IMG/VR virus record: IMGVR_UViG_3300044846_003459
Coordinates: 1 to 37,752 of that record
Source of the DNA: a virus
Lineage: Duplodnaviria > Caudoviricetes
Direction: 5' to 3' (one strand)
Length of the DNA: 37,752 nucleotides
Below the pieces are notes generated by a model. That model had not been told where the DNA came from and did no database searches. It saw nothing but the letters and a program-made list of their open reading frames with translations. Each line of letters begins with the position of its first letter. Position 1 is the stretch's first letter. Below, piece by piece: positions 8,940-30,680 of this stretch. The position numbers and the translations under genes were made by a program.

Positions 8940-8943
8940 GACT

Positions 8944-9390
8944 TTAGTTCTTGAGGTGTTTCACGTAGACGACTTCTTGCCGCTCGAAACCGAGGCTGCG
9001 CCAGAACGGGCCGATCCCACGGCTGCCGCGGTATTCCCACGACGAAGCCACGATGGCGTCCCGGCGATGGACATCGCAGTATTTCTCGATGACGTTCTTG
9101 AACGCAGCGGCGGTTTCCGGCTTCAACCGGTCCTCCTCCAAAGAGTAGACGAAGTTGACGTAGATCAGCTCCTCCTTGGTCGCGAAACCCGGATAGCGCC
9201 CGAAGATGATGACCTGCCGTGGCGACTCGACGTTGTCCACGTAGGCGTCCATCGACTGCGTGATGTAGCCCTGCGCCAGCCGTTCGAGGCAGTGCTCGAC
9301 GGTCGTCCGCTCGGCGCACGAAGACTCGCCGATGAACGCCCGGATGAGGGGCGCGATCGCGGTCAGCTTGGACTGGGGGAGCGGGATCAT
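8944..9390 (-). CDS. GNAT-fold acetyltransferase-like protein
   Basis: 148 aa. C-terminal IGPFWRSLGFERQEVVYVKHL is typical of the GNAT end motif. Position between tail and core genes is common in podoviruses. Confidence 0.55.
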   Translation of the reverse strand: MIPLPQSKLTAIAPLIRAFIGESSCAERTTVEHCLERLAQGYITQSMDAYVDNVESPRQVIIFGRYPGFATKEELIYVNFVYSLEEDRLKPETAAAFKNVIEKYCDVHRRDAIVASSWEYRGSRGIGPFWRSLGFERQEVVYVKHLKN

Positions 9391-12021: not shown

Positions 12022-13249
12022 CCCGCCCGAACTGTGCCACATCGGAGGCGATGTCCACAATCCATTTCGCAGGAGCGTAAAAACGGGGATCGTCGTGCTG
12101 GAGACCTCGGAACGCTTGATCGATCACCATCCGGTTCCAGTAGGTGAAATGGTCGAAAGCTTTCCGCATCCCAGCACGACTCCACAGGACGCCGTGCATT
12201 CCGAGACATCCGCGCACGAGAGCGAGCGAGGTTGCTGTTTCGGGAGAGACGTATTCGCGGGCGTCATCAGTCCACGGGGCACCGCCGATCATGGCCCCTA
12301 ACCAGTCGTCTGGCAGTGCCACCATCATCCGGGCAAAGAACTCGTCGAAGTCCGCCCCGAAACGGGCGTCATCCTCGAAGACCAGTAGGAACTCGTCTCC
12401 TTCGATCAGCGACCGCTCGATGATGTCTACGTGGTCACGGGTGGCTAGATGGTAGTGCGGATGCGCCTCCGCATGATCGACGTGGCAGGGCACTGCCCGC
12501 TCCTTGGCAGTCTTGGCCCGATACCACTCGACCTCTCGAATTGAGCAGCCGCTCGACTTCAAGGACGCATAGAACCCCTCGCGCCTGCGGGCGTAGTGCT
12601 CGGGGCTGAGAACCACGCAGCGGATGCCCTCCGTGGCGACCGGTGCGATCGGCTCGCCGAAGTGCGTGTCGCCAAAATTGGGGGTCGGCCACCGACGCTC
12701 CCACGGTTCGACGGGGGCGTGCGTGTGCCGTAGAATCTGACCCGATGGAATCTTGGGCCAGATTACGTTGAGCAAAAATTCTTCATCCTCCCCGTAGCGA
12801 CCTGCACGCTCGACCCTTTTGATGAAGTGACTCACGTCCAGTTTTCCAACCAGTATCCCCCAGCCGCCGCCGAGAAGCGGGACGTTTTCGTGCCACGAGT
12901 GATCCCGCAATGAATGCACCCCTACCCCCGACTCGACCCACTCGGCGACGGCAAGAGCCTCGCGCTGATCGAGCCGGGAGTCCGCATCTCGAAAAATAGC
13001 GTGGGTGAACCGAGTATCGTTGGCCGACTCAAATCGCCAGAACATCCCAGCGGAACCCGGCAAGGGGTCATGCTCGACCACCTCCACCCCTTCGCGCTGA
13101 AGCGCCGGGATCGCGTAGTGACCGCGCTGGGCATGGACGACGACGGTCCACCCAGGGTAGAAATGCTTGGCGAGCCGAGCGTTCTCCAGCATCCCCCAAG
13201 AATACTTCGCGCCGTCGCCGTAGAGTGAGAAACTGATGCAACCTTTCAT
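12014..13249 (-). CDS. Two-domain glycosyltransferase-like protein (GT-A-like N-domain + GT25-like C-domain), 411 aa
   Basis: ATG at 13249 (ATGA overlap). N-domain: ISFSLYG, GMFWRF, FRDADSR (DxD), RDH..H, LGGGWG. C-domain: LVFEDDA, HGVLWS, ID. Confidence 0.7.
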   Translation of the reverse strand: MKGCISFSLYGDGAKYSWGMLENARLAKHFYPGWTVVVHAQRGHYAIPALQREGVEVVEHDPLPGSAGMFWRFESANDTRFTHAIFRDADSRLDQREALAVAEWVESGVGVHSLRDHSWHENVPLLGGGWGILVGKLDVSHFIKRVERAGRYGEDEEFLLNVIWPKIPSGQILRHTHAPVEPWERRWPTPNFGDTHFGEPIAPVATEGIRCVVLSPEHYARRREGFYASLKSSGCSIREVEWYRAKTAKERAVPCHVDHAEAHPHYHLATRDHVDIIERSLIEGDEFLLVFEDDARFGADFDEFFARMMVALPDDWLGAMIGGAPWTDDAREYVSPETATSLALVRGCLGMHGVLWSRAGMRKAFDHFTYWNRMVIDQAFRGLQHDDPRFYAPAKWIVDIASDVAQFGRDE

Positions 13250-13929
13250 TTTCCCCATCCTTTGTCCGGCCACCACACGTCGTTGGCATTCTCGCCGCCG
13301 CTGATGCTGGATTTCCCGGAGGATTGCCCGCAGACCCACGGGTCGATTGCGAGAATCCGGTGTTGCCGCCACTCGTGCAGCCTCCCGAGCTGGTGGTCGA
13401 TGTGCATCGGCTCCTTCGACTCGATGTAGTCCGGGGCGTGCAGGATGTGCTGCTGGAACTGCGCCATGAACCGGTCGCTCACCGCGAATGCGTGGGTCCG
13501 ATTCACGTTCCGGCAGCGCACGACGCCCCTACAGAAAGGCCACGGCGGGCCGGACTCGACGTAGAGGTGTTGCCCGCCGAGGTAGAGCATGTCCCATTGG
13601 ACGCCGTCGAGCCGCATCATGGTCAAAGGTAGCCGATCGGCGAAGTCCTCCGAGAACACGGCGTCGTCCTCGAAGACGACGTAGCTCGGCAGATCGTCGA
13701 GCAGCGCGTCCTGGGCGATCCGAAGATGCGACATCAGGCAGCCCCAAGCCCCGTTGCCAGCCCGCCACCACGCCGGGTGCGGGCACTTGTCGCCTTCGAT
13801 GGCGCGGACGCGCTCGAACCCGGTGATGCCTGCGGCGGCAGCGCGTTCCTGAAACGCGACCCAGCGATCAGGCCGGTTGTCGAGATTGATGACGTAGGCG
13901 CGTCCGAAGTGGTGTCGAAGATCGATCAT
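13246..13929 (-). CDS. Glycosyltransferase family 25-like
   Basis: Hallmark GT25 motifs: YVINLDNRPDR, GCLMSH, VFEDDA, WDMLYLGG, THAF, HIDH. Confidence 0.85.
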   Translation of the reverse strand: MIDLRHHFGRAYVINLDNRPDRWVAFQERAAAAGITGFERVRAIEGDKCPHPAWWRAGNGAWGCLMSHLRIAQDALLDDLPSYVVFEDDAVFSEDFADRLPLTMMRLDGVQWDMLYLGGQHLYVESGPPWPFCRGVVRCRNVNRTHAFAVSDRFMAQFQQHILHAPDYIESKEPMHIDHQLGRLHEWRQHRILAIDPWVCGQSSGKSSISGGENANDVWWPDKGWGK

Positions 13930-13985: not shown

Positions 13986-15170
13986 TTACACCAGAGGGAA
14001 TGTCCCGCTCTTGCTTCCGCACGAAGTGACCACGGTGAATGTCGTCCCGCGAAGGTCGGTTCCGGTAGCTTCAAGCTCAATAGCGATGCTGTTGCCTGAC
14101 AGCAGGAAGATCGGGTATGGCGTGTCCGGCACCAACGTCGCGATGCCGGTGATGTTCGTGATCTCCAGCGATGTCGCGCCTGTGTTCGAGACCGTGACGA
14201 TCATCACGTCGTCGGTGCCGCCGTAGACCACGTCGAAGATCACGAACGCGCACGCAGAGCTGCTGCTCGACGAGGACGACGAGCTGCCGCCGGTGCTGGT
14301 TGACGAGCTGCTGCTCGACGAGGACGCGGACAAAGAACTGCTGGAGCTGCTTGACGAGGACGACGAGCTGGAGCTGCTGGAAGACGAGGACGACGAGCTG
14401 AAGCTGCTGGAAGACGAGGACGACGAGCTGGAGCTGCTGGAAGACGAGGACGACGAGCTGGAGCTGCTCGAAGACGATCCGCCGCCCCCGCCGCCGATAC
14501 TCGAAGACGAACTGGTTGGGCCGGACCCGCCGCCGTCCGTCCCCATTGGGGGCCGAGCGGTGTCGGGGAAACTGCCGCTGCAACTCGGGGCGCTGTTGCC
14601 GCCGGGGTCGTAGCAGGTGAAGGTGTCGCAGCAGGCGTTCTGCGCCTCGGGCGGAGTGAAGACGTATTCGACTTTCGGCGGCTCGGGGTCGTCCCAATAC
14701 TGGTCGTCGGCCAACCCCTGGCTTGCGACCATGCAGGCGTCGCCGGTCCACCAGTAGGTGCCCGCGGCAGTATTCTGCGAGATGAGGTAGTTCTCCGCCT
14801 GGTAGAGGTTCACCTCACCACGGCATCGTGATTCCGATCCCTCGCAGGTGATCTCGACCGGAGTGCAGCCGAACTCCCCACCGGTGGTGTCGATGGCGTA
14901 GACGCGACCGGCGGCGGCGACCACCAGTGCGGACAGCGGCGGGCCGAACGACTCCGCCGAGATTCCGAGCGACGGCGCGTAGGCGCTGACGCCCTGAAAC
15001 TGACCTGAGATCCCGAGATCGTGGTAGTGGAGACCCGGGCGGGTCCGCACCACGCCTTCGTCGAACACCATGTTGACCGCCGAATGGAGACGTTGGTTGG
15101 TCAGACCGAGCGGATTGGACCGCATGTCCACTCCGCGGGTTCCGACGGTCAGGATGTTGACGGTGGGCAT
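13986..15170 (-). CDS. Tail nozzle protein, N-terminal part, with poly-Ser tract and small C-terminal beta domain, 394 aa
   Basis: ATG at 15170. GVDMRSNP..AVNMVFDEGVVRTRPG..GQFQG..QAENYLISQN resembles the start of nozzle/tubular-B proteins. About 70 Ser follow. Confidence 0.6.
   Translation of the reverse strand: MPTVNILTVGTRGVDMRSNPLGLTNQRLHSAVNMVFDEGVVRTRPGLHYHDLGISGQFQGVSAYAPSLGISAESFGPPLSALVVAAAGRVYAIDTTGGEFGCTPVEITCEGSESRCRGEVNLYQAENYLISQNTAAGTYWWTGDACMVASQGLADDQYWDDPEPPKVEYVFTPPEAQNACCDTFTCYDPGGNSAPSCSGSFPDTARPPMGTDGGGSGPTSSSSSIGGGGGGSSSSSSSSSSSSSSSSSSSSSSSSSFSSSSSSSSSSSSSSSSSSSSSSLSASSSSSSSSTSTGGSSSSSSSSSSACAFVIFDVVYGGTDDVMIVTVSNTGATSLEITNITGIATLVPDTPYPIFLLSGNSIAIELEATGTDLRGTTFTVVTSCGSKSGTFPLV
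14353..14472. repeat. 4 x 30-bp tandem repeat within the poly-Ser coding tract
   Basis: Unit gacgaggacgacgagctggagctgctggaa at 14353, 14383, 14413 and 14443, with at most 1 mismatch each. Confidence 0.9.
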
Positions 15171-15175
15171 GAGGA

Positions 15176-16039
15176 TCAGGCGTCTTCGACCCAGTGCGGC
15201 CCGTCGGCAGCGGTCCACTTCAGCGTCCAAGTGGCGTCGCCGGTCGGGAACGGCAGGAAGCTGGCGACCGAGGAGACCGCGGCGACCGGGTCACACCCTG
15301 GGCAATCGCAGCTCGAAGGTGTGGTCGGGATCTGCTCGACGACGATCATGCCGGAACCGGCCAGCGTCTTGAAGTTGCGGATTTCGGCACCGGTGCCGGA
15401 AACGGCGATGGCTTCGAGGCCCACCAGCTCAAGAGAAGCGGCCCGTTCGAGATGCCCCCGCTTGGAGAGCGTCCGGTCGGCTTCAGCGCGGGTTTCCCAC
15501 TGCGCCAGCTCCGCGTTCCAGACTTGGCTCGCGTCTTCCGATCCGCCCTTGATGCCGTGCAGGTTGCCCTTGTCATCGGCGATGACGGCGTGATGGAACG
15601 GCAACGGCTCGCCGAGAACCGGACGGGTGTTGATCCCGGCAGGCTTCCACCACTGGTGCCAGAGCGTCGCGATCTTGATCGGGACCGAGGCCACGACGAA
15701 CGCCTTGCCGTCCACAATGCGGATGAACCCGGAGCCCGCCAGCTTGGCGAGCTTCGCGCCGATCCGGCCGAGGAGCGTGATGCCCTCGCCGTTCCGGTCG
15801 TTGATCGGGTCGGTGAAGCCGTTGGGCAGCGTGTAGCCGCAGCTCGCCGACGACCGCAGCGCGTTGCTGTCCGCGCAGCGGGACACCGGGCTGCCGGTGA
15901 CGTTCGCCGGGGTCGTGCCGAGGCACTCGTCCGTCGCGCAAAGCGTGGTGTCCGCGCAGGCTTGCGACAGAGCGGAAAGGGTCGGCAGCTCCGGGTTTAC
16001 CGGAGCCACCGCTGCGGGCGTGGTGCAGTTGCAGCTCAT
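15176..16039 (-). CDS. Cys-rich hypothetical structural protein, 287 aa
   Basis: High GC3, in the structural operon, 10 Cys (MSCNC, CATDEC, CDCPGC). Confidence 0.65.
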   Translation of the reverse strand: MSCNCTTPAAVAPVNPELPTLSALSQACADTTLCATDECLGTTPANVTGSPVSRCADSNALRSSASCGYTLPNGFTDPINDRNGEGITLLGRIGAKLAKLAGSGFIRIVDGKAFVVASVPIKIATLWHQWWKPAGINTRPVLGEPLPFHHAVIADDKGNLHGIKGGSEDASQVWNAELAQWETRAEADRTLSKRGHLERAASLELVGLEAIAVSGTGAEIRNFKTLAGSGMIVVEQIPTTPSSCDCPGCDPVAAVSSVASFLPFPTGDATWTLKWTAADGPHWVEDA

Positions 16040-16048: not shown

Positions 16049-17758
16049 TTATTGAAGGCGAATCCAAGTGCCGGTGCCTGCGGTGCTGACGCACTGCCAA
16101 GCATAGGTGGTGTCGGCGGCAACTAGGGTCAGCGCGGCACCATTGATTGTCCCCCCGCCGGATACGGTGACCGTGAAAGATGTGGAGCCGATAGCTTCAG
16201 TAGAATGAAGTCGGACGATCTGACCGGCGCGGCTGTTGGCCGCAGTCGGGAGGACGAACGAGCCATTGGCTAAAGCGCCTGCGGGAGTCAGGTAGTGGGT
16301 CTGGTCGGTGTAACGAGCTGCCGTGATGGTGAAGCCCGTGGTCGGTGTAGCAGCAACAATGACCGGGAAGAGAGCCAGCGTTCCGTCGGCGTCCGGCGGA
16401 GTAGCCACGCGGTTGCCGGACATGACGTTGTCCGCTTCGATGGTGAAAGCATTTCCGGTGTCACTATCAACCAGCGAGAGCTGATAAGTGGCGACCAAAC
16501 CCCCGCCAGAACCGAACAACACCGCCTTGGTCTCGTCCGGCGATCCATTGCCTCCAGTGCTGGCGTCGAGAATGGCATCCGACTTGGTTGCCGCATAGCG
16601 GAGCTTCCACGTCAGGTTGTTGATGCTGCCGTCCGGGTTGGTCGCGCCATAGTTGTCGGGGCGGATCGTGGTTGGCGAACTCTCGACATCGGTACCCGCG
16701 ATCAGCTCCATGAGGTAGGCGCGACCGGAGACATCGACGATCTCGAAGCGACCGAGGTCGTGGGTCGTGGTGACCGCGAGGCCATCGAGCTTGGTGACTC
16801 CGCCGCCGGTGAGCCCCGTGATTGCCGGGTCGTGGCGGGCGGAGTTCAGGACTGTCGTGATCTCGCGCCAAGTGTTCGGCGAGGTGTCGATCGCTTCCCA
16901 GACGCGGGGACCGAACTGGGCGTGGCGGCCGATCCGCTCGGCGACCGTGCCGACCGAAGTGGCGAGGCCGGTTTGAGTGGCGGTGCTGGTGCCGTCGGGG
17001 GTGACCCCGGTGGCCGTGCCGTTGGCGATGGCCAGGTTCAGCGTGCCGTCGTTGGCCGCTTCGACCAGCCGGGTCAGCGCGAAGTCCGCGCCGATGTTGT
17101 CCACCTCGAACATGGCCGCGACAGCGGCGTTGCCCGAGAGCGCGGCGGCGGCCTTGGCGGCAACTGCCGAAGGGATGTCCCCGGAGTCCACGTTGAAGGA
17201 GATGGCCAGCGGCGAGCCGGTCAGGCCCGCTGCGGTGACCGTGAGGGTCATCGAGCCGCCGGTGGCGACCGTGCCAATGACCGTCTGGGTCGTGATCTGC
17301 TTGCGACCGACCGTGCCGTTGACCGGCGCGGCGGTGAGTTCGAGAACGTCCCAGGTATCGAGATCGTCCTGCACCTCGTCGATGTTGGTTTGCAGCGCGG
17401 TGTCGGCTGCGGTGCGGGCCGCGATCTCGTCGTCGAGCGCGTCGCGGAGTACCTCGCAGCAGGCGATGGCCGAAACATCGGTCACGTCGCACACGTTGAG
17501 CACGGTGGCCGCACCATCGAGGTCGTCGGCTTCATACTCGAAGGTGTAGGAGGTGCCTTCCACCACGCATCCGCCGGACACGAGGTTGACCCGAGCAATC
17601 GGGTTCTGCGCAATCCCATCCACGAACTCGGGGAACGCGGGGTTTGCGACTTGATTGAGGAAAAGCCGGACCTCGTCACCGGCCGCGATTTCCGCGCCTC
17701 CCGGTGAAACGAAAAGGGCTCCGGCGACTTGGAAATTGCGAAGTGTTTTCTTGGCCAC
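16049..17758 (-). CDS. Tail/head fibre-like protein, 569 aa
   Basis: Thr/Ala/Gly-rich, short coiled coil (EIAARTAADTALQTNID), TGLTGGG..LDG...IRPDNY fibre-type motif. Confidence 0.6.
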   Translation of the reverse strand: MAKKTLRNFQVAGALFVSPGGAEIAAGDEVRLFLNQVANPAFPEFVDGIAQNPIARVNLVSGGCVVEGTSYTFEYEADDLDGAATVLNVCDVTDVSAIACCEVLRDALDDEIAARTAADTALQTNIDEVQDDLDTWDVLELTAAPVNGTVGRKQITTQTVIGTVATGGSMTLTVTAAGLTGSPLAISFNVDSGDIPSAVAAKAAAALSGNAAVAAMFEVDNIGADFALTRLVEAANDGTLNLAIANGTATGVTPDGTSTATQTGLATSVGTVAERIGRHAQFGPRVWEAIDTSPNTWREITTVLNSARHDPAITGLTGGGVTKLDGLAVTTTHDLGRFEIVDVSGRAYLMELIAGTDVESSPTTIRPDNYGATNPDGSINNLTWKLRYAATKSDAILDASTGGNGSPDETKAVLFGSGGGLVATYQLSLVDSDTGNAFTIEADNVMSGNRVATPPDADGTLALFPVIVAATPTTGFTITAARYTDQTHYLTPAGALANGSFVLPTAANSRAGQIVRLHSTEAIGSTSFTVTVSGGGTINGAALTLVAADTTYAWQCVSTAGTGTWIRLQ

Positions 17759-17825: not shown

Positions 17826-19658
17826 TTAGGACAGGTCGCTGACTCGGACGGTAGCCACCTGGCAGGTGCCGAGGGTGTCCCCGACCGCAGCACTGATGGT
17901 CACCGTAAAGGTGTCCGCAGTCCCGGAGACGGCTTCCGCGAAGGTCGCAAGGACCGGAACGGTGATGTTCTTCGGAGCGTCGTCCCCGGCTTCCCAGGTG
18001 AGCGTCCCCGAAGTTGCGGTGTAGTCCGCCCCAGCGGTGGCAGTGCCGTTTGCAGTGGCGTAGGCCACGGAAGCCGCCGCGCTGGTGTCGCCGGTGCGGG
18101 TGACCCGCAGGACGATGTTGTAGGCGTCACCGAGGAACACCGAGTCGATGTTGCCGCAGGGCTCCAGATTGAGGACTGCGGAGGTCGAGCTAGGCTCGAC
18201 GCACTCGCCCTCATCGCCGGGAACCTTGCCGCACTGGGCGCACTCGGCGGTCTGGCAACCGGTGTCGTCGTGGCAAGCGTCGAAACGCTCTGGGTTGGCC
18301 GGAGTGTTCGGACCCGCAGCGTAGTTGCGAGGAGCGACTTCAATGGCGTAGCCTGCGCGGCGACCGTGACGGTAGGCGATGAAGCCGGAGAACTCCGGGT
18401 AGATCGACTTGAACCGGAACTCGTGACGAGCGACGAGCTTGAACTTGTCGTTGAAGTCGTTGCAACCGAGGTGAGCGCCGTCGATGACCTTGACCTGGTA
18501 GTTCACGCCTTCGTTGGCAGTGCCTACCGGCTTGAGCGGCTTCATCAAGCCGTAACGCTTGAAGGAGCGCGGGTCGATGTGCGGCATGAGGGTGCACATG
18601 TCGTAGCTCACGCCATCAACGGTGATCTCGTCCTGACGATACTGGTGGTTCACACCGGTCACGATGCCACCTTCCTCGTCCTGCTTGTTGATCCAGGGGT
18701 AGACCCGGACGAAGTTGTAGACGGGGTTGCCGGACGCGATGGCGGTCTGCACGAAGTAGCCGCGGATCGGCTCATCGGTGAAGTAGCAGCGGATACCACC
18801 GTAATCGGCGAACTGGCGTCCGCGCATGGCACTCTCTTCGTCCTTGAAGACCTCGGTGTTGTAGGTGGTGTCGGCAGGGTTGCGGGCGATCTGGTCGGCT
18901 TTGACCGCGTCCAACCAGTCATCCGTCGGCATTTCGACTTCGAGCTTCCAAGCCTCGTTGACTTCCATGCCGCGGCCCTTCATTTCGGCCTTGATGTGGT
19001 CCTTGTAGTCCTGGAGGAAGTGGATCGAGATGCGCTTGGTTGGAGGAGCTTGCCAGCCACCGGTGGTGACGTTGAACTGGTTGGCACCGAGCACCGAGGC
19101 GTTCGACTCCGACTTCTGGATGACGAGGTTCAGCAGGTTGTCGCTGAAGTTGTCCAAGCCCCACATGGAGAACTGGTTCTTAAACCCAGTGAAGAAACCA
19201 GTGATGTGCTCCTTGCCGAGGCCGTCGAGTTCGCGGGCGCACTTGATCGGGGTGGTGAGATCGAGGCCGTAGTCAACCGTGCCGCGGCGGCGGAAGCCCT
19301 GGGCGAAGTCGATCTCGCACTGCCCGTGGCAGGCGTTGTCGGCGATGTCGTTGATCTGGGCGCTGAAGAGACCGGACGCGCCGTTCTCCTTGCGACCACG
19401 CATCTCACCGGCGACCAAGGACCCACGAGGGCTCCCCTGCGCCGTGTAAGTAAGTTCGTTGTATGCACGGGAAGCCTGGCGGGCCTCACCGTAGATGATG
19501 GTGTCGTTGTTGTCGTGGCGATCGACGACCCCACCGTCGGGGATCATGCGGAGGGCCATGCGATCGGATTTCACGATCTTTTCACGGACGATGTCCGTCA
19601 CGATGTCGGCCTCTTCGTGGAGGGCGGCTTTGATTTTGTCAGGATTGCAGGTGCTCAT
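17826..19658 (-). CDS. Major capsid protein with C-terminal Calx-beta domain, 610 aa
   Basis: Follows the scaffold gene, has strongly biased codons and is followed by a terminator. The C-terminus VTRTGDTSAAASVAYATANGTATAGADY...GTLTWEAGD..KNITVPV matches Calx-beta. Confidence 0.75.
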   Translation of the reverse strand: MSTCNPDKIKAALHEEADIVTDIVREKIVKSDRMALRMIPDGGVVDRHDNNDTIIYGEARQASRAYNELTYTAQGSPRGSLVAGEMRGRKENGASGLFSAQINDIADNACHGQCEIDFAQGFRRRGTVDYGLDLTTPIKCARELDGLGKEHITGFFTGFKNQFSMWGLDNFSDNLLNLVIQKSESNASVLGANQFNVTTGGWQAPPTKRISIHFLQDYKDHIKAEMKGRGMEVNEAWKLEVEMPTDDWLDAVKADQIARNPADTTYNTEVFKDEESAMRGRQFADYGGIRCYFTDEPIRGYFVQTAIASGNPVYNFVRVYPWINKQDEEGGIVTGVNHQYRQDEITVDGVSYDMCTLMPHIDPRSFKRYGLMKPLKPVGTANEGVNYQVKVIDGAHLGCNDFNDKFKLVARHEFRFKSIYPEFSGFIAYRHGRRAGYAIEVAPRNYAAGPNTPANPERFDACHDDTGCQTAECAQCGKVPGDEGECVEPSSTSAVLNLEPCGNIDSVFLGDAYNIVLRVTRTGDTSAAASVAYATANGTATAGADYTATSGTLTWEAGDDAPKNITVPVLATFAEAVSGTADTFTVTISAAVGDTLGTCQVATVRVSDLS

Positions 19659-19868: not shown

Positions 19869-21188
19869 TTACAGCTCGTCGTATTTGTCGCCGAACAGCT
19901 CGGTGAGAACCGAGTTCCGGCGAGCGCCCGCTGCGGCAGGTTTTTTGTCGGAAGGGGGAGTCGGCTTGGAAGACCGGACCCGGCGCATGGCATCAAACTC
20001 GTCCTCGTCGGCCTTGTTCTCCTGCTCGTATTTCGCCAGTTTCTTGACGACATCAGCAAAGACCGCCCGAGTTGCCAGCCCTTGAACCATCAGGGGGAGT
20101 AGCTTTCTGCGCTTTTCCGCCACGAGCTTCTGGCGATCGGCGTAGAAAGTCTTCAGATCGGTGCCGTTGGCCTTGAGCTTGTCGGCTTCTTCCGGCGTCA
20201 GCGCCCTGGGGCCGAGGATGACCTCCAGCACGTCGGCCTTGGCTTTCTCCACCCGGCGGCGGGCTTCCGGCGTCTCCTTGACCATGCGGGCCACGACCGA
20301 TGAAACGCTGTGCGGGTCGGCGGCGATCACGTCGTCCGGGAGGTCCCCGATGGCATCGAGAACCGGCTGGAACTCGGCCACTGCCGCCTGATATTCGCGG
20401 GTGCCGACGGCGAGCTGTCCGGTTTTCGATCGGGACTTGAGCCCCTCGGCCAGCTCGATCGCCTTGCGGGTTTCCGGGACGGCTCGCTCGATGACCGCCA
20501 GCGCCTTGTCGGCAATCATGTCGGCTTTCGCCTGCTCGGTGTAGTCGAGATCCTCGTATTCGTCCTCGAAACCGCCGACTTCCTTGATGATCTGCTTGCG
20601 GAGTCCCGCGATGGCAGCGTCAAACTCCTCCCCTTCGAGCGGGTCGGCGTCCATGAAGCTGTTGATGTAGACCCCGAAATTGTCACGGAAAACCTTCGGA
20701 TCGCGGACGCCGAGCATTGCCGCTCCGCGCTTCACGTCGTTGAGGACCTTGTCGCGCAGCGTCTTGACCTCCGGGAAGTCCCTGGGATCGACCTGCACCG
20801 ACTCGATCTCTTCGCGGCGGGCCTTCTCGGTCTCCAGATCAGCCTTAAGCCGGTCAAGCTCCAGCTCGTATTCGGTGACCTTGGCCTCGGCCAGCTTGGC
20901 ACGGCGACCATTCTCCTTGGCCATCTTGCGGGCGACGGTCTCGTTCTCGGGTTCCAGCTCGGCATCGGCTTCCGCAGGCTTCTTGACCACCGGGGCCTCG
21001 TAGTCCTCCTCAGAGTCGTCATCTTGGACCGGGGGGTCCTGCACCGGCGGCGGGGCGTCGTCACCCGGCTCGTCCTGCACCGGCGGCGGCGGCGGGGCGT
21101 CGTCACCCGGCTCGTCGCCGAACAGGGCGCTCATGTTCTTCTCGTGTCGGGCTTCGTGCCCAGGTTCGATATTTTCGATGGGTGGCAT
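19869..21188 (-). CDS. Capsid scaffolding protein
   Basis: Acidic Pro-rich N-terminus with repeated DEPGDDAPPP(PP)VQ, coiled coil, located between portal and capsid genes. Confidence 0.7.
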   Translation of the reverse strand: MPPIENIEPGHEARHEKNMSALFGDEPGDDAPPPPPVQDEPGDDAPPPVQDPPVQDDDSEEDYEAPVVKKPAEADAELEPENETVARKMAKENGRRAKLAEAKVTEYELELDRLKADLETEKARREEIESVQVDPRDFPEVKTLRDKVLNDVKRGAAMLGVRDPKVFRDNFGVYINSFMDADPLEGEEFDAAIAGLRKQIIKEVGGFEDEYEDLDYTEQAKADMIADKALAVIERAVPETRKAIELAEGLKSRSKTGQLAVGTREYQAAVAEFQPVLDAIGDLPDDVIAADPHSVSSVVARMVKETPEARRRVEKAKADVLEVILGPRALTPEEADKLKANGTDLKTFYADRQKLVAEKRRKLLPLMVQGLATRAVFADVVKKLAKYEQENKADEDEFDAMRRVRSSKPTPPSDKKPAAAGARRNSVLTELFGDKYDEL

Positions 21189-21189: not shown

Positions 21190-21471
21190 TTAGGTGGTGG
21201 TTGGAGGCTTGGCAGACTGCTCGGTCTTCATCACGGCGCGGCCTTTGGTCGTGAAGAGGAAAAAGGCGTCTCGGACGAGCTGAAGCGCCAAGAGCGTTGG
21301 GCCGCAGTTGTCGCGGTTCTCGGGCGTGACGTGATCCAACTGGATCTGCGCCAAAACCAAGTCGATCTCCGGGGCGACGGCGTCGAGCTTCTTGCAAAGG
21401 CTCGCATCGCCAACGAGTTGTGAAACCCCTGCGGTGATGGGGAGTGCCGGTCGGCGTGTTAATTGCATCAT
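21190..21471 (-). CDS. Hypothetical protein, 93 aa
   Basis: ATGA-coupled to the portal gene and abuts the scaffold start. Confidence 0.6.
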   Translation of the reverse strand: MMQLTRRPALPITAGVSQLVGDASLCKKLDAVAPEIDLVLAQIQLDHVTPENRDNCGPTLLALQLVRDAFFLFTTKGRAVMKTEQSAKPPTTT

Positions 21472-23759
21472 TGTTGCGCTGATTGTCCAGAGACAGCCTG
21501 CGTTTCGATCCGCTTATTGTCAAGCTGGAGCCTCTGAGACTCCCCGACCTCGCGGGCATACTGGCTGCGCTGCGACAACTTGTTCCGCGCCTCGCGGCTC
21601 GCCCAGAGTCGCTGGGTGTCCTCGATCTTGAGGCCCAGGGCCTGCGCCTTGAGCTGAAGCTCCGCGGTCTTCAGCTCGACCTCGGCCTGCTCGCGGGCGG
21701 TGAGCTGCCCCTGCTCGGAGCCTAGCCGCTCCTCGACCTCCTGCACAACCGCCTGCGCGGACGCGACGATGTTCTGGTAGTCCTGCAAGAACGATTTGGC
21801 CTCCGGGTTGGTCAGCGGGTTACCCATGAGAACTTGGAGGTGCTCGCCGGTGTGCTCGGCGAGACCGGCGAACTGGAGCACGTCCAGTTTGTCCCACGGC
21901 CGCATCTGAGCCATCGCGACCATCGCCTGCATGTCGATGAGGTGGACCGGGATGTGATCCTGGTGGATGTCGTCGGGAGCGATTGGAATCGTCTGCCCCA
22001 GCGCGGCCCGCCGCTCGATCGTGGAATACTCGTTCTCGGCGGTGATCTTCTGGGCGTTGAGGATCGCCTGTGGCACCTTGACCAGATACTCGGCCAAGTC
22101 CGGGTCCTGCGTCCGCAGCGAGGTGGCCTGCTGCACCACCAACGGGCGGGTCGCCGGAGCGTAGTTCATGATGTTGTTCATGAGCCAGTCCGCCGTCTCG
22201 ACCCGCTGCTGCACGTCGCCGTTGCCGATCACCCGCTTGGCCCGGACCCGGATGTATTGGAACCGGTTGTGTACCCGTTTCGCGAGATCCTTGTAGGGGA
22301 TGTCGTAGCGATCGAGGTAGGCGCGGACCCACATCGTCTCGTGGTAGCCCTCGGTGCCGGGTTTCGTGTCGCCCGCGAGCAGACGCCAAACGAGCGTTTC
22401 AAGAATGGATTCGAGGTGGTTGTAGCTTTCGGCGAGCCGGTTGCCGATGAGCTGCGCGGAGTTCTCCTGCCGCTCAAGCGCCTGCTGCCGCAGCTCTCCA
22501 CCGCGACCTGAGTTCGAGACCGACGAGGACGCGAGGCCAGCGGCGTTCTGCCGGAGCAGCGAGAACGGGGTCATGAGACCCTGGGAGTTCCCCTTGAACT
22601 CCATCTCGGACACGCCTGCCGGGGCATACATGTCCTCGACGATGTTCCAGCGGGCCACGTCATCCGGGTTCGCATCCCCGAGCTGGATCTTCGGTTTGGC
22701 CCGGATCTTGTCGCCTTCGAGGGTGAGATTGATGAGATCCTCCAGTTCCAAGGCCGACGGGTAGATCAACTCCGCGATGCCGCGGCAGGTGTCGAGGGTT
22801 TTGACGCCGCCGATCTCGGAGTCCACGAAGACCATGTGGAGCCAGTCGGTCGCGCTCGGGTAGGCTTTCTCGACGTAGTCGATGATCTGTGCCGACGCCC
22901 TGCGCTTGTTGTCCTCGCGGTCACCTCGCTCGGTGGTCGCGGTGCCATCGATGCCATCGGTGAAGAGGGTCCGACTGACATACTGGTTCCCCTTGTCGTC
23001 GTATTTGACCTCGAAGTAGTCCCAAGCGGAGACCGTCGTGGACCGTTCGGACTTGCCATCGCGGACGGCCTCGGTGACCTCGAACCCGTGGGAGCTTCCC
23101 TGATCCTTGCGGTTGTCGCGGACCTGCTCCTCCAAAATCTCGATGAGGTGCTCGACGTTCTCCCGGACGATGTAGCGGCTCTGGCCCTCACCGATCGCCG
23201 CAAGCATGTGCTTCAGATCGTGAATCGAAAGCTCCTTCGGGTCAAAGGCGTAGGAGACCTGCTCGGCGTCGAGCGGGGTTGCCTTTGGGAAAAACATGTC
23301 GGCGCGGATCTCCGGCAGCCAGCCGTAGCGGGGGTTGTTGGTCACCGGCGTTCCCCCGGCGATTGTAACCTCCCCGCCGATCTTCCGCCAGAGGTTCGCG
23401 AACTTCCCCTTGAAGTGGATGGCACCGCGGTTGATCGCCTCCGAGATGCGGATGCTGGTCTGGTAGTCCTTCTCGGCGTTGTCGGTGTCCACGATGACCT
23501 CGACGAGAGCATTGGTCGTGGTCACCATCGATGTGATCTGCGACTCAATCTGGAGCATGTCGCGGTGGGACAAACCGAAGTTGGTGATCTCCGTGCGGCC
23601 GAGTTTTTCGGCCTCATCGTCGGTCATCAGCCGCTGCATGTTCGTGAACTTGCGGATGATGTCGAGCCGATCGCGCCGGGTCTTCACGCCATCCCATGCA
23701 TCGTCCTTGGCGCGGACCAGATCGTCCGCCGTCTCGAAGTATTCAGATTTGAATTTCAT
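21468..23759 (-). CDS. Portal protein
   Basis: 763 aa, located after terminase and before scaffold. RGIAELIYP motif and a Gln-rich coiled-coil C-terminal barrel fit P22-like portals. Confidence 0.8.
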   Translation of the reverse strand: MKFKSEYFETADDLVRAKDDAWDGVKTRRDRLDIIRKFTNMQRLMTDDEAEKLGRTEITNFGLSHRDMLQIESQITSMVTTTNALVEVIVDTDNAEKDYQTSIRISEAINRGAIHFKGKFANLWRKIGGEVTIAGGTPVTNNPRYGWLPEIRADMFFPKATPLDAEQVSYAFDPKELSIHDLKHMLAAIGEGQSRYIVRENVEHLIEILEEQVRDNRKDQGSSHGFEVTEAVRDGKSERSTTVSAWDYFEVKYDDKGNQYVSRTLFTDGIDGTATTERGDREDNKRRASAQIIDYVEKAYPSATDWLHMVFVDSEIGGVKTLDTCRGIAELIYPSALELEDLINLTLEGDKIRAKPKIQLGDANPDDVARWNIVEDMYAPAGVSEMEFKGNSQGLMTPFSLLRQNAAGLASSSVSNSGRGGELRQQALERQENSAQLIGNRLAESYNHLESILETLVWRLLAGDTKPGTEGYHETMWVRAYLDRYDIPYKDLAKRVHNRFQYIRVRAKRVIGNGDVQQRVETADWLMNNIMNYAPATRPLVVQQATSLRTQDPDLAEYLVKVPQAILNAQKITAENEYSTIERRAALGQTIPIAPDDIHQDHIPVHLIDMQAMVAMAQMRPWDKLDVLQFAGLAEHTGEHLQVLMGNPLTNPEAKSFLQDYQNIVASAQAVVQEVEERLGSEQGQLTAREQAEVELKTAELQLKAQALGLKIEDTQRLWASREARNKLSQRSQYAREVGESQRLQLDNKRIETQAVSGQSAQQ

Positions 23760-24490
23760 GTCCAGTGGTTCGCGGTGGCAGCTTGTTCAAAGGTCAGTTC
23801 CGGCACGCCCTTCCGGGTGTTCGCCCCATTCATCACTCGCCAGAGCCAGTCTCGGGCTTCCGCCTGGGTGTAGCGGGGGCGGTTGCGGAGATCGGCGATC
23901 GCGGCCCCGAAGTGGATGAAGCACTCCGCGCAGCCGGTCGAGGGGTTGAGATTCGGGTCGAGCCACTTCCGCAGCTCGGTGGCCAGCATCAGCAAGGTGC
24001 CGAACTCGTAGGTGTCCAGCGCCAGATACATCTGGAGCATCCCCCAACCCTTGCGCCCCCAGACGGCGGGGCCGACCTGCGGGCGGGCGCGGGTGGGCGC
24101 GTGCTCGGGTGGAACGGCGGAGCCGGATGCGGCGGTCATCAGATCGCTCAGGCGCACCACCTGATACTTCTCGGTGGCCCTGCCGAGCCACTGGATGTTC
24201 AGGTTGAGCCACAGGTCCAAGTCCGAGAACACCAGTCCGTTGAGCTGAAGCAGTCGAGCCGCTTCGTCGTGGACCGCTTGCCCGCTCGGGCCGTCGGCCT
24301 CGATGTGCTGTCCATTGACCAGCAGCGAGACCCGCCAGCCGCCGGTGGGCTTACGCCCCGAAGGGACGAGCGTTTTGCTGATCTGGTAGCGCACGCCATC
24401 GCGCCCGACGACGCTCGCCGCGGTCGCGCTGTAGACCATCGCGGCTGCTGGAGCCGCTGTCGCAGATTTGTTGCAGGTGTCGCAAGCCAT
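23756..24490 (-). CDS. Erv1/Alr-like sulfhydryl oxidase domain protein with N-terminal CxxC
   Basis: PAVWGRKGWGMLQ ... GCAECFIHF ... WLWRVMNGANTRKGVP aligns by eye to the Erv consensus P..WG...W..LH / CxxC..HF / W....HN.VN..L.K. The N-terminus is MACDTC. Confidence 0.65.
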   Translation of the reverse strand: MACDTCNKSATAAPAAAMVYSATAASVVGRDGVRYQISKTLVPSGRKPTGGWRVSLLVNGQHIEADGPSGQAVHDEAARLLQLNGLVFSDLDLWLNLNIQWLGRATEKYQVVRLSDLMTAASGSAVPPEHAPTRARPQVGPAVWGRKGWGMLQMYLALDTYEFGTLLMLATELRKWLDPNLNPSTGCAECFIHFGAAIADLRNRPRYTQAEARDWLWRVMNGANTRKGVPELTFEQAATANHWT

Positions 24491-24491: not shown

Positions 24492-26542
24492 TCAGACGCG
24501 CTTCACTATCCTTTTTTTGCCCAGACCGCGAGACGTAATTTCGTCCCACACGCTCCGACCCCCGTTGGCCGACTTCTGGCCGACGACGCTCTGCCGGAAG
24601 CCGCGCTTGAGCGCAACACCGGTCAGCCCCATGAGAACGTCCCGGTGGTCCGGCGAGACCTGCTGCCAGCGGGCTTTGTATTCCCGCTTGCCCTCCGCGA
24701 CATACTTGCGATTGACCGTCTGGTAGAGGGTCCGGGAGAGCTGCGTGGTAGCCGTCTCGATGAAGCTGCCGCCGCGGACCTGCCGGGTGAGGAACAGATC
24801 GGCGGCGAGGAACGCCAGCTCGGTGCAGCGGTTCTTGCAGCAGTCGTCGGAGGTCTTCTTGATGTTCTGGATCATGTGCCCCTCCGGCCCCTGGTTGTAG
24901 TCGAAGGCGAGGCAGTTGAACCCCATGATCTTGTTGATCGAGCTGACAATGTCCGGCCGCATCGAGAAGTCGTAGCCGAAGTTGGCGAACGGGATATTGT
25001 TGGCGAGGCACAGCTCCCGGCACTGGATGGCGATCTGGTCCTCGTAGCTGATCTCCGCGCCAGCGGTGTAGTCCGAGATGTCCATCCCGCAGGCTTTCAT
25101 CCGATCCGGCCAATAGTTGTCGTCCCCAGGAAACCACGCCCCTTTGACCAGCTTCAGGGACCGGAAGTGCTCCTTGAACACGAAAAGCTCCTGAAGCTCC
25201 TGCTTGCCCTCGCCGTCGGTGACGTAGGCTTGCCCGATCTCGGCCCAGCCAAAGACCGCCTTGTCCCGGCCGCCGAACGCCGGGTCGCAGAATGCCACGC
25301 GACCGGTGACCCGGACCATGCTGAAAAACGTGTCCTTGTGCCGGGAGGCACTCAGCTTGGCGCGGGACAGCACGGAGTTCGTTTCGTCGCCGCGGACGGG
25401 GAACGATCGGACCTGCGAGTAGTAGTCCGGCGACTGCACGCCGTAGTCGTCGCGCATCCGCTGAAGGTTCTCCATTTTGAAGAGCTTCGGGTAGATGGTC
25501 CGGTTGGCCAGCACGTTCGGGCTGCGGTGGCCGTCAAAACGCAGCGTGATCGAGGATTTCGAGCTGTGCCACCACACGTCAAACTCGATGTCGAGGTCGT
25601 CGAACGATGACGGGCCGCCGAACAGCCCGACCGGCTGGGTGAGTCGCCCGCCCATGTCCTCCTCGTCCTTGAAGTTCTGTGAGGTGATGGCGAAGAACTG
25701 GTCCTGCGAGACCAGGTTGTTGAGCATGGTCTCAAACGAAGGGTTCTCGATTTCGTTGACCTCGTCCACGAGCAGGAGCATGACCCCACGGGTCACGTCC
25801 TTGCCGCGCCCCTTGGACCCCTTGAACTTGCCGACGTGCTTGACGTTTCGCAGGACAATCGTCCCGGCTTTCGGGAGACCCGGCACGAGGTCAAGCTGCC
25901 GGTTGGCGTATTTCTTCCCCCAGGGGAACAGCCACGTCGCGTCCTCGTAGCCCTTGCCGGTGTCGTTGGGATGGTGCTCGCAGAGCTGATCCCACAGCTC
26001 CTCCACGTCGCCCCAGACCGTCGAGTCGGCGGCGTTGTCGAACGGGTTGGCGACGAAGACCGCCGAGTATTCGGGGTCGATGATCATGATCGCAAACGCG
26101 ATGCGGATCGCGCCTGCCGACTTCCCCGAGTTCTGGCTCCCGATCAGGTGCTCCAGCTTCTTGTTCCCGCCGCCGATGCCCATGCAGAACAGCATGACCG
26201 CATCGGCCAAGGACGGCGTGATGTCGGTGTCCGGGAAAGACAGCTTGATGAGCGAGAGCATGTGCCGGAAGTAGGGCTTCCCCCACTTGCTCGACCCACC
26301 CCAGTTCGGACGCTTGGCGTCGAACAGGATCTTCTTCTCGATGCCGATTCGGTGCTTCGCCAGCTCCTGCGGCGTTGCATCGAGCGGCTCCGGCCCGCCG
26401 TATTCCGGCTCGTCGTAGTAGTCGTGGAAATCCAGCAGACGCATCGTGATGGCGTCCGCGTCCAACAAAGGGTCGGACCAGTTCAAAAGGTCGTGGTTGA
26501 GCACGACCTCGGCGAACGGGTCCGACCTTGGAGCTGTTTCAA

Positions 26543-26546
<4 letters not shown>
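24492..26546 (-). CDS. terL: Terminase large subunit
   Basis: Walker A GSQNSGKS, Walker B LLVDE, RNase H-like nuclease AFCDPAFGGRD, C-terminal SPDHRD. Confidence 0.9.
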
Positions 26547-27713: not shown

Positions 27714-27947
27714 CTATTTTCGGAAACCTCTGACTTTTTCTGCAACCTTTTTGGGCTGCTTCACGAACTGCTTGCCCTTTTTGTTTCCAGCGGCTTTGGC
27801 GCGGTTCGTCGCGGCTTTCTCCCCTGGGGATAGGGCAGCCCACGCGGCATCCGGGAGGTAGCGTTTCTTGCCCTTGGATGGCTTGCCGTCACTGGTTCGC
27901 CACTTCTGATCCGACCACTTCTTCAGGGACGCCTGCGGGGGTTTCAT
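27714..27947 (-). CDS. Small basic protein (DUF5872-like, C-terminal part)
   Basis: SLKKWSDQKWRT...RYLPDAAW...KQFVKQP, Lys-rich. Confidence 0.6.
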   Translation of the reverse strand: MKPPQASLKKWSDQKWRTSDGKPSKGKKRYLPDAAWAALSPGEKAATNRAKAAGNKKGKQFVKQPKKVAEKVRGFRK

Positions 27948-28087
27948 CGTTTCTTTGGGGGAGTGTGCGTGAGAACTTTGCTGGCTGCCGTGTGCTTGGC
28001 TCCAGTCATCAAGGTCTTGCCGGTCTTGTGGGTGGGGCCGGTGTAGACCTTACCGCTTGGCAGGTAGTGTGTTTGGTTTTTGGCCAT
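27944..28087 (-). CDS. Small basic protein, 47 aa (MAKNQTHYLPSGKVYTGPTHK...)
   Basis: ATG at 28087 overlaps the upstream TAA, and the stop overlaps the next ATG. Confidence 0.65.
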   Translation of the reverse strand: MAKNQTHYLPSGKVYTGPTHKTGKTLMTGAKHTAASKVLTHTPPKKR

Positions 28088-28266
28088 TACCTGTATCCTC
28101 CGCCTTTGGATTTGTATTCGCGAGCCAAAAGCTGCGCTTTTCGAGCCGACCACTCCCCTGGATCTCCGCCTTTGCTACCGGCTTTGATCCTGTTGAACAG
28201 TTGCTTCCGCATGGTGGGCTTGGTGTAGTTGCCCGCAGAGTTTACCGTGCTCTTGGTCTTTTTCAT
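28087..28266 (-). CDS. Small basic protein (DUF5872-like, N-terminal part), 59 aa
   Basis: NYTKPTMRK...GGDPGEWSARKAQLLAREYKSKGGGY. Start reassigned to ATG 28266. Confidence 0.65.
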   Translation of the reverse strand: MKKTKSTVNSAGNYTKPTMRKQLFNRIKAGSKGGDPGEWSARKAQLLAREYKSKGGGYR

Positions 28267-28280
28267 GGGAATAGTGGAAA

Positions 28281-28310
28281 GGAGCGTGGCCACTTTTGCA
28301 GCCACGCTCC
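28281..28310 (-). terminator. Hairpin/terminator
   Basis: 10-bp stem GGAGCGTGGC/GCCACGCTCC followed by TTTCC. Confidence 0.45.
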
Positions 28311-28319
28311 CCGGTTGGC

Positions 28320-28424
28320 TCACTTTTTCTTGGCCATCTTCATGGCCATTTTCGTGGCCATCTTTTTGGCGACCTTTTTGGTCGCCATCTTTTTGCCGTA
28401 TCCGGCCATTTTGCTGTTTTTCAT
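28320..28424 (-). CDS. Tiny Lys/Met/Ala-rich peptide, 34 aa (MKNSKMAGYGKKMATKKVAKKMATKMAMKMAKKK)
   Basis: Manual translation, below the ORF-track cutoff. It fills the gap between neighbours and is followed by a hairpin. Confidence 0.65.
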   Translation of the reverse strand: MKNSKMAGYGKKMATKKVAKKMATKMAMKMAKKK

Positions 28425-28437
28425 AGGGAAGGGGATT

Positions 28438-28698
28438 TCACCATTTCACTTTGTTTGCCCAGAAGGCAGCGGACATCTTGCCCTTGGCGATGTTCCCGGC
28501 GTGGCGGGCCTTGAACGCCTTGTTCCGCTTGCTCCCGTCGGGCGAGCCGCTGACACCCTGCTGGCCGAAGCGGATCGTCTTCACCTGGTCGCCGGATTTG
28601 GCCACGACGACGTGGCTTTTGGTCGGATGACTGGGGGTCTTCTTCGGCTTGTTGTAGCCGGAGACGCCTGCGCGTGAAAGCCGGGAGTCCTTTTTCAC
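28438..28698 (-). CDS. Small basic protein, 86 aa
   Basis: GYNKPKKTPSHPTKSHVVVAK...IRFGQQG...FKARH...SAAFWANKVKW, a recurrent phage small basic protein type. Confidence 0.7.
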   Translation of the reverse strand: MKKDSRLSRAGVSGYNKPKKTPSHPTKSHVVVAKSGDQVKTIRFGQQGVSGSPDGSKRNKAFKARHAGNIAKGKMSAAFWANKVKW

Positions 28699-29363: not shown

Positions 29364-30680
29364 TTATTCCGGGTCGAAGAAAATGCCTGCTTGCCGGAAA
29401 TCGACATACCCGGCGGCGGAGGATTGGATGCCCACGGCGATCCACAATTGCGTCACGCTGGCATCCACCTCGAAGGGTTCGCTGACACAAACCAGCTCGG
29501 CCGCTTTCAGGGGGCTTGCCGTCGTGGTGCCGCCGCCCGCTGTAATGGGCCAAAGCCAATCCGACGTTTCCGGACTGCCCACCTGCTGCACGGCGACGAA
29601 AGCGCCAGTGATACCGGTGCCGGTCGGGATGCGGATTCGAGCAGCGGCGCGCACTCGCGTTCCCGCTAAGGGAATGCCGCTGGTGATTCGGGCGTAAAAC
29701 GCCCGGATGCCCGACGTGTTTTCTGCGCCGGTGGTTTCCAGTCGCTGCCACACCGTGCCGTCTGCGTCGGTTGTTTTGCTGGCCAATGGAGCGGCAACCC
29801 CATTGTTCAACCAGCTAGTCGCAAACCCCGACACGTTCCCGTCAACATATGGGTTCGGTGTCACCCAAAGACTAGACCCCCGTGGGGGAATCCTCCATGA
29901 GCTGGCAAATGCATACGCTTTCAGAGCGTCCCACAAATCCGCGCCGAACTGGAGGCCCAGCCGCATCGTCGGGTGCAGTCCGTCATTCGGAAACTCTGTT
30001 GCCGCCGCATAGCCAGACGAGTCCAGCACGACGAAATCATTCCACGGGCGGTATGACATTAGACCGTGCGCCTCCCATGACTCTTGGAGGATTTCGTTGA
30101 TCGCATTGACCTGATCCCGCTTTGCCGAGTTCCATCCCGCTGCGGTCGATGCCCTCTGCAAAATGTCCGTGCCGATCACCGGTTTCCCAGTCGCCACCAG
30201 TGCGTCCCAAACTGCAATGACGCTGGCCGCAATGGTCGCCGCGGAAGCTACACCGTCGATGTCATTTGTGCCGATGTGGACAATGATAACATCCGCATCA
30301 TCGGCCGCGGCCACGGCGTCGTTTATCGGCACCACGCCGTTCAACCAACCAGGACCGCCCGTAAGATAGGCCGCGGCTGAAATGCCGGAATAGGCGTGTT
30401 CCAAGTCGCTGGCGAACGCGTTGTCACGCGGGACGGGGATCATCCGTCCCGCCGAAATCAGACGTAAAGCCGTCGCCCAACCGGATGGGTCAAGAGACAG
30501 GTAATTGTAGTCCGCTGCATACCCGGAAGACCGGTCGGTAATGGAATCACCTACCGCAAGGAATTTTGTGACCCGCCCAAGAACGCCGAGTTTGTCGCGG
30601 AACGCCGCCGGATCGTCGATGCCCGTGCCGTCGCCGGAGACGCCCCCGTGAACAAACCCTTTACCTTGTAGGAAACTCAT
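29364..30680 (-). CDS. SGNH/GDSL hydrolase with C-terminal beta-sandwich (virion-associated esterase)
   Basis: Block I AVGDSIT, block III IGTNDI, block V DGLHP. Confidence 0.8.
   Translation of the reverse strand: MSFLQGKGFVHGGVSGDGTGIDDPAAFRDKLGVLGRVTKFLAVGDSITDRSSGYAADYNYLSLDPSGWATALRLISAGRMIPVPRDNAFASDLEHAYSGISAAAYLTGGPGWLNGVVPINDAVAAADDADVIIVHIGTNDIDGVASAATIAASVIAVWDALVATGKPVIGTDILQRASTAAGWNSAKRDQVNAINEILQESWEAHGLMSYRPWNDFVVLDSSGYAAATEFPNDGLHPTMRLGLQFGADLWDALKAYAFASSWRIPPRGSSLWVTPNPYVDGNVSGFATSWLNNGVAAPLASKTTDADGTVWQRLETTGAENTSGIRAFYARITSGIPLAGTRVRAAARIRIPTGTGITGAFVAVQQVGSPETSDWLWPITAGGGTTTASPLKAAELVCVSEPFEVDASVTQLWIAVGIQSSAAGYVDFRQAGIFFDPE

Follow-up and report, generated by a model that had tools for sequence, protein, structure and literature searches.

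An Erv/ALR homologue encoded in the predicted head operon of a tailed phage

A two-domain protein with an Erv/ALR domain

The virus record IMGVR_UViG_3300044846_003459 (Caudoviricetes), analysed over its full length of 37,752 nucleotides (the 37.7-kb window, about 64% complete), contains at 23756..24490 a gene for a two-domain protein of 244 amino acids, termed P0002; this gene and all other features of the window described below lie on the minus strand. The C-terminal domain of P0002 (residues 139-244, 23759..24076) is a divergent homologue of the Erv/ALR sulfhydryl oxidases, flavin enzymes known to form disulfides in eukaryotes and giant viruses; the presence of such a homologue in this unexpected host is real. 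The gene, delineated from its translation, homologue alignment, AlphaFold2 model, structural matches and profile, is wedged into a set of probable head genes. We propose, with our confidence evenly divided, that P0002 is an accessory virion disulfide oxidase, in which an N-terminal domain would position a flavin adenine dinucleotide (FAD)-dependent thiol oxidase that adds some of the disulfides of the head proteins.

The translation of 23756-24490 opens with MACDTC and contains, in the order given in a preliminary description of the sequence, the Erv-like motifs WGRKGWGMLQ (residues 144-153), CAECFIHF (187-194) and WLWRVMNGANTRKGVP (215-230). An opposite-strand or chance open reading frame (ORF) was considered and rejected: the plus-strand frame lacks any of these motifs, and the minus-strand ORF is conserved and under purifying selection, with nonsynonymous (pN) and synonymous (pS) values of 0-0.037 and 0.09-0.55, respectively, in the Erv domain, as compared to four related loci.

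The Pfam profile PF04777 matched 26 of 26 members of a first alignment (the query plus 25 of 28 matches; P0003, P0004 and P0028 were excluded) at E<=1, is carried by the relative P0030, and was found at E<=0.01 in 88 of 97 relatives with the active-site CxxC motif (best value, 3.6e-13). A profile of these 97 CxxC-bearing members, compared with the PDB, retrieved pB119L of African swine fever virus (ASFV) with E=1e-12 and Arabidopsis Erv1 with E=3e-12, and the top 20 of the 22 PDB matches were all Erv, ALR, QSOX or R596 proteins. The AlphaFold2 model of P0002 (predicted local distance difference test, pLDDT, 83.5) shows four long helices and a short fifth one (residues 141-157, 163-177, 188-203, 209-227 and 234-240). 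In an exhaustive structural alignment against 48,161 chains, the six best matches were all Erv proteins (Z 10.1-11.7), led by 3gwl (Z 11.7, root-mean-square deviation 2.2 over 96 residues), while the next unrelated chain scored 7.9. The four-helix Erv bundle expected from the preliminary description is predicted by the model. Since helical bundles with Z values below about 13 can share a common arrangement in this aligner, the sequence profile is the stronger proof of Erv homology. Foldseek returned nothing at E<=0.001 for the P0002 model, though Erv chains occupy its top ranks, and an ESM Atlas search with the whole protein gave no usable match. A histidine-triad protein and the phage adaptor gp8, matched by the single sequence at E=0.02 and 0.7, were outranked by Erv chains once profiles were used.

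Active site and predicted flavin pocket

Translation and family alignment place an active-site-position CxxC, C187-A-E-C190 (23921..23932), at the start of helix 3. C187, C190, H193 and F194 align with the Erv pattern CxxCxxHF, in which a CxxC at the beginning of helix 3 followed by His-Phe is a typical feature (PMC3616962). P0002 also keeps G145, W149, W215, N221, N224 and the C-terminal W243; canonical residues are replaced by Q153, M220, V229, L232 and T185.

To place these residues in a family context, we used the best 150 of 217 matches from a profile search of 1.84 billion representatives. Together with the query they form 151 rows, comprising 84 with the active-site CxxC, 39 of full length without it, 27 that consist of the N-terminal domain alone, and one unclassified sequence. 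Residues of the predicted FAD site follow the CxxC. G145 is present in 77/84 rows with and 5/39 without the motif, and the helix-1 tryptophan W149, whose counterpart stacks on the flavin in Erv enzymes (PMC4721541), in 80/84 versus 19/39. For the helix-4 asparagines the figures are 79/84 versus 12/39 (N221) and 66/84 versus 5/39 (N224), and position 229 is Lys or Arg in 74/84 CxxC-bearing rows versus Lys in 4/39 rows without CxxC. The residue equivalent to H193, a canonical Erv histidine contacting the flavin (PMC3616962), is His in only 38 of the 84 CxxC-bearing members, and position 232 is Phe in nine.

The two conserved histidine positions had been read as LQ and MN in the preliminary description, and the translation agrees: they are Q153 and M220. 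The helix-4 histidine is an Erv hallmark that stacks on the adenine (residue roles according to PMC3616962 and PMC4721541) and occurs in 52/84 CxxC-bearing relatives; the helix-1 histidine is found in only 6/84. At helix 4, the 84 sequences comprise 48 of HN type, 26 of MN type, four with HD and six others. On the adenine these histidines act as a single planar pair, and Q153 occurs together with M220 in 17 of 18 cases, so that the Q153/M220 combination looks like a joint replacement of the pair. P0002 lacks both hallmark histidines, and its FAD site is a putative one. We describe P0002 as an Erv homologue without counting it among the confirmed Erv/ALR sulfhydryl oxidases, since the hallmark histidines, the lysine and aromatic residue of the KxxF/Y motif, and the aromatic residue preceding the CxxC are all replaced.

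Intact, dead and domain-less versions at one locus

In the near clade the active-site CxxC is invariant (26/26), whereas family-wide it is conserved in only 84 of the 151 rows. Its loss requires six to nine changes on the best trees, three of which are forced by well-supported branches. The Erv domain is better conserved than the N-terminal domain in 22 of 24 nearest pairs of MN type and in 44 of 47 of HN type, as compared to only 9 of 38 pairs lacking the CxxC. Genes for the N-terminal domain alone are real, being directly followed by the portal gene in loci L006, L007, L024, L025, L026 and L028. The oxidase is dispensable in many lineages, and the N-terminal domain is the constant part of the family.

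A second Erv gene was not detected by PF04777 in any of four Erv-dead records (28-84% complete). Such blanks for second or displaced Erv genes are weak, because in the complete genome G006, which was missed by the A6 profile, a degenerate Erv copy was recovered by a broader profile.

These family states bear on the strongest of the alternative explanations, which we nevertheless consider unlikely, namely that the Erv domain no longer binds flavin and is a structural head-assembly domain, its CxxC being a structural disulfide or a metal site, and that capsid disulfides form by air oxidation after lysis. The replacement of canonical FAD contacts by Q153, M220, V229, L232 and T185 would fit, as would the persistence of 39 full-length relatives without the CxxC and of 27 without the Erv domain; C187, C190 and H193 could conceivably bind a metal, and spontaneous oxidation has been offered as the explanation for other phages (PMC13576161). 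However, the MN-type group, unlike the group without CxxC, keeps the CxxC, N221 and a strongly conserved Erv domain, and H193 corresponds to the flavin-contacting residue of canonical Erv enzymes (PMC3616962), with histidine occurring there in too few of the CxxC-bearing members for a fixed metal ligand.

The N-terminal domain

The N-terminal alpha/beta domain (residues 18-122, 24125..24439), defined by the family alignment and the model and occurring as a stand-alone gene in relatives, is modelled with confidence (pLDDT 91), and P48, G51, W52, N84, W94, N98 and W101 are each conserved in at least 89%. Its best structural match among the 48,161 chains reached only Z 4.1, and Foldseek gave no match under E=1, which does not prove that the modelled fold is new.

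Upstream of this domain, in a low-confidence tail of the model, lies the motif C3-x-x-C6 (24473..24484). The preliminary description had likened it to the distal shuttle di-cysteine of Erv1, a comparison that gains little support: whether the motif is present is not tied to the condition of the Erv active site, so that the shuttle reading is weak. Of the 27 homologues without an Erv domain, 23 have the motif, as do 18 of the 39 that have lost the active-site CxxC; conversely, 9 of 41 CxxC-bearing members whose N-terminus is long lack it.

Paired cysteines in the putative capsid protein

The putative major capsid protein (610 amino acids, 14 Cys; 17826..19658), named for its position, size and conservation, was aligned in 132 rows, 120 of them from 142 matches and 12 from loci and the window, with some rows being duplicates. 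Four pairs of cysteines co-vary. Both residues of 114/462 are present in 58 rows, a single one in none and neither in 73; the corresponding numbers are 27, 1 and 101 for 501/599, 95, 4 and 32 for 399/468, and 126, 0 and 3 for 110/140. In tree contrasts, 399/468 move together in 7 of 10 cases, with none moving in opposite directions (p 0.016), and 501/599 in 8 of 9 (p 0.008). Because cysteines change in pairs, two of these pairs significantly so on the tree, the alignment suggests that they form disulfides. The Calx-beta domain at the C-terminal end of the protein (Pfam E=4e-11) carries its own co-varying pair, 501/599.

The preliminary description had called for a comparison with cysteine-rich capsids. 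The pair 114/462 occurs in all 16 compared phages that have the Erv CxxC and in 1 of the 14 that lack it, and the locus L056 provides a seventeenth CxxC-bearing phage with the pair. Thirteen of these 30 Erv-capsid links were read on one locus, 16 via source contigs of equal size, and one via an identity over 169 amino acids; C462 of L033 is poorly aligned. Each of the three changes of 114/462 on the capsid tree involves lineages whose Erv site is dead or missing, among them the complete genome G006. All Erv-dead phages compared still have a core set of capsid cysteines. The paired cysteines of the putative capsid protein stand, whereas their link to the Erv state is not significant after tree correction (p 0.25-0.5).

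A rule of "two or more of the three variable capsid pairs" (16/16 versus 0/14) was not counted, as it had been chosen after seeing the data, and a link between P0017 and P0192 was dropped, the 2,606-nt contig being too short for both genes. Ten further sequence clusters that were looked up showed no link to a capsid protein. A second potential substrate, the putative virion protein of 569 amino acids next to the capsid gene (16049..17758; N-terminal Cys 64, 90, 100 and 101), has its cysteines enriched in CxxC-bearing relatives; its candidacy as a correlated substrate holds in part and is broken by the locus L043. Two cysteine-rich proteins encoded at 13986-16039 (10 and 11 Cys), one with an initial Cys-x-Cys and one with a run of about 70 serines, are further candidate disulfide substrates, the cysteines of which do not clearly follow the Erv state.

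Proposed role of P0002

The proposal of an accessory virion disulfide oxidase draws on the fold, homology, operon position, selection, family states and paired capsid cysteines; FAD binding, oxidase activity, the substrate, and the place and time of action are what we infer. The N-terminal domain would likely have a separate job in head assembly and bring the oxidase to the assembling head. There, C187/C190 would be reduced by capsid dithiols such as C114/C462, and the electrons would move on via FAD to oxygen, with Q153 and M220 together replacing the histidine pair in a remodelled adenine pocket. The role would be accessory: where the active site or the entire domain has been lost, the gene and the core capsid cysteines persist, and the variable pairs tend to disappear. 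A wider formulation, which we put forward tentatively and hold less firmly, is that of a widespread clade of tailed phages, uncultured and possibly infecting Verrucomicrobia, in which a head-docked Erv enzyme with a new domain and a histidine-free FAD pocket makes specific capsid disulfides in the cytoplasm, and in which loss of the enzyme repeatedly precedes loss of the disulfides.

A number of findings weigh against an oxidase acting on the capsid. P0002 by itself matches PF04777 only at E=0.005 (17.6 bits, below the cut-off of 27.6). Both hallmark histidines are gone (Q153 in helix 1, M220 in helix 4), V229 and L232 occupy the positions of the KxxF/Y lysine and aromatic residue, and T185 that of the aromatic residue two positions before the CxxC. 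The CxxC or the whole Erv domain has been lost in 66 of 151 representatives, and the joint decay of FAD-site residues and CxxC is not significant after tree correction (p 0.25-1), because there are so few supported contrasts (only three starred). The link between Erv state and 114/462 likewise comes down to two to three independent events, with one starred contrast on the 30-row tree, and 16 of its 30 assignments were not read directly on DNA. Individual loci also disagree. L024 has a gene for the N-terminal domain only, and its capsid fragment is 100% identical over 169 amino acids to P0260, in which 114/462 is intact; in L043 the Erv site is dead, yet the cysteines of the 569-residue neighbour are retained; and L058, outside the count, has the CxxC and no alignable 114/462 (27% identity). 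Moreover, disulfide-rich phages have been described without a phage-encoded oxidase (PMC13576161). The pair 110/140 is retained in 14 of 14 Erv-dead phages, and most capsid cysteines persist in relatives that have lost the active site, so that an essential role of the oxidase is not supported. The observation made in the preliminary description is confirmed; its interpretation is partly supported, and the role is more limited than first proposed.

It seems to us improbable that an active flavin oxidase is carried inside the virion and cross-links the shell in oxygenated water, at lysis or later, rather than in the reducing cytoplasm. The gene is coupled to head genes, the conserved N-terminal domain could anchor the enzyme in the particle, and window DNA occurs in 18 lake-water runs at half or more of its words. 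A partner of the kind used in the poxvirus pathway, thioredoxin or glutaredoxin, was found in none of five records (0/5 for each), only one of which is complete. On the other hand, virion membership of P0002 is itself a prediction, and a catalyst would be less needed once the particle is in air. Least credible is an active oxidase that works as a redox switch on DNA packaging by acting on the packaging machine or on its own N-terminal cysteines, shared ancestry accounting for the capsid correlation: the gene does directly follow the terminase-like gene in nearly all loci, the terminase-like protein has conserved cysteines (121, 420, 509 and 570) and the capsid link goes back to only those two to three events, but the terminase cysteines do not separate loci with CxxC from those without (23 rows, some repeating one contig), nor does the N-terminal CxxC follow the Erv state.

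Comparison with known systems

The closest structural counterpart, ASFV pB119L (3gwl), shares with P0002 the order of helices, the helix-1 tryptophan, the CxxC followed by His and an aromatic residue, the helix-4 tryptophan and the two asparagines. It keeps LH and HN where P0002 has LQ and MN, and it lacks the extra N-terminal domain without a fold match, the DPxxNPS insertion before the CxxC, and the setting in a phage head operon. Cellular Erv1, ALR and Erv2 proteins (2hj3, 3w4y, 3mbg, 1jr8) resemble P0002 in fold, position of the CxxC and presence of a second di-cysteine in a flexible tail, and differ in the KxxF/Y motif, which is altered in P0002. In the cellular enzymes the distal pair acts as a shuttle (PMC3509050), whereas in the phage family it persists without the Erv domain and is absent from some intact members.

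Mimivirus R596, which matched the P0002 model with Z 10.4, and baculovirus Ac92/P33 are likewise viral Erv modules fused to a family-specific domain (PMC3509050). Unlike in these proteins, the fused domain of the phage family, which is unrelated, is the more persistent half and stands alone in 27 of 151 representatives. A precedent for the 39 relatives without CxxC is the pseudo-Erv domain of QSOX, which keeps the Erv fold without catalysis (PMC3616962); the dead copy of QSOX adjoins an active one in the same chain, whereas the dead phage copies replace the active one at the locus. Cysteine-rich virion proteins, as in this phage family, are also known from Agrobacterium phage Milano and from Q-beta, and reduction destroys the robustness of the Milano particle (PMC10491603). 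For phages of this kind, in contrast to the present family, an oxidase gene of their own has not been described (PMC13576161).

According to a 2026 paper, no thiol-oxidoreductase machinery for virion disulfides has been described in bacteriophages, unlike in poxviruses and mimiviruses (PMC13576161), and bacterial Erv1/Alr homologues are given as absent in a 2023 survey (PMC10598087). Our literature search, made largely among openly accessible papers, found no description of a bacteriophage Erv oxidase; an "evr1" match in PMC5648845 was part of a DOI and not a report of an enzyme. The present family, which has at least 217 representatives at 50% identity, places an Erv homologue in a phage head operon. 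If the wider formulation above is true, P0002 and its relatives would be the first disulfide-forming machinery encoded by phages, with implications for how the Erv family, described as being without bacterial homologues, arose. The locus offers natural controls in its intact, dead and domain-less versions, together with a candidate substrate pair (C114/C462) and a variant in which neither hallmark histidine is present. Because of these controls and the named candidate pair, the origin of phage disulfides is directly testable with few recombinant proteins. A small oxidase adapted to the bacterial cytoplasm could also help in making disulfide-bonded proteins in E. coli.

Gene neighbourhood and distribution

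The start of the P0002 gene is 1 nt past the stop of an ORF of 684 amino acids (24492..26546), and its stop overlaps the start of the downstream ORF of 763 amino acids (21468..23759) in an ATGA at 23759-23756. In the upstream ORF, Walker A/B-like and RNase-H-like motifs occur at positions 136, 257 and 418, which we take to mark a terminase large subunit; it had zero profile matches in Pfam, PHROG, NCBIfam and PDB. The 763-residue product is a probable portal, based on a language-model lead (score 0.96) to Uroviricota clusters, one of which has PF23899 (SU10_portal) on 13% of its members, and showed no terminase- or portal-type profile match. It is followed by a putative scaffold (439 amino acids, acidic and cysteine-free; 19869..21188), inferred from position and composition, and by the capsid gene. 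The terminase, portal, scaffold and capsid names are all probable, and searches of Pfam, PHROGs, NCBIfam and PDB profiles did not confirm them. The placement between terminase and portal, as first described, therefore holds for the fixed position after the terminase-like gene and the ATGA overlap, whereas the names of the neighbours are only partly verified.

A search with the terminase alignment retrieved 20 metagenome loci, in 16 of which a homologue of P0002 directly follows the terminase. Two of the remaining four stop at the terminase, and two distant ones (L037 and L038; terminase identity 23%) show no homologue nearby and may mark the edge of the clade. The homologue is present in all eight IMG/VR contigs found and in two of three loci from species genomes, the third beginning inside the portal gene; a separate terminase scan of species genomes gave no match. 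These three loci come from bins labelled Saccharibacteria, Akkermansiaceae and Verrucomicrobiales, which hints weakly at Verrucomicrobia as hosts of the phage clade. Locus L058, in a Verrucomicrobiales bin (3194-3850 and 8282-10273), is a distant relative with the CxxC kept and the helix-4 motif decayed, about 760 nt between the terminase and Erv genes, and a capsid protein with 20 cysteines. Searches of 50,697 annotated phage records with P0002, P0170, P0041, the terminase or the capsid protein found no credible cultured relative, the only two matches being weak (E=2 and 0.2). DNA nearly identical to the window was present in lake-water sequencing runs, 18 of which contain at least half of its words, seven of these being possible sources; no RNA dataset was among the runs containing window DNA.

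Some relatives differ in other parts of the module. In L022, the terminase (3220-5232) shares only 74% identity with that of the window, as against 93% and 99% for the flanking genes, which points to recombination inside the packaging module. A portal homologue of 640 amino acids (P0371), 84% identical to that of the window, lies on a 5.9-Mb NCBI contig and may represent an integrated copy in a host genome.

Further features of the window

Within the structural region, a family-25 glycosyltransferase (Pfam E=5e-12) and an adjoining protein of 452 amino acids without a profile match are encoded at 12014-13929, possibly for virion glycosylation. Upstream of the terminase region, four consecutive small ORFs of 69-86 amino acids at 27714-28698 code for lysine-rich, cysteine-free proteins. 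A GDSL-type esterase (29364-30680; Pfam E=3e-10) is encoded beside tail-fibre-like genes, and its body varies among close relatives, suggesting a swapped receptor or depolymerase module. The terminal ORF (36904-37752) shows a weak helix-turn-helix match and starts with a long low-complexity Val-Leu repeat, which is probably non-coding repeat DNA read in frame.

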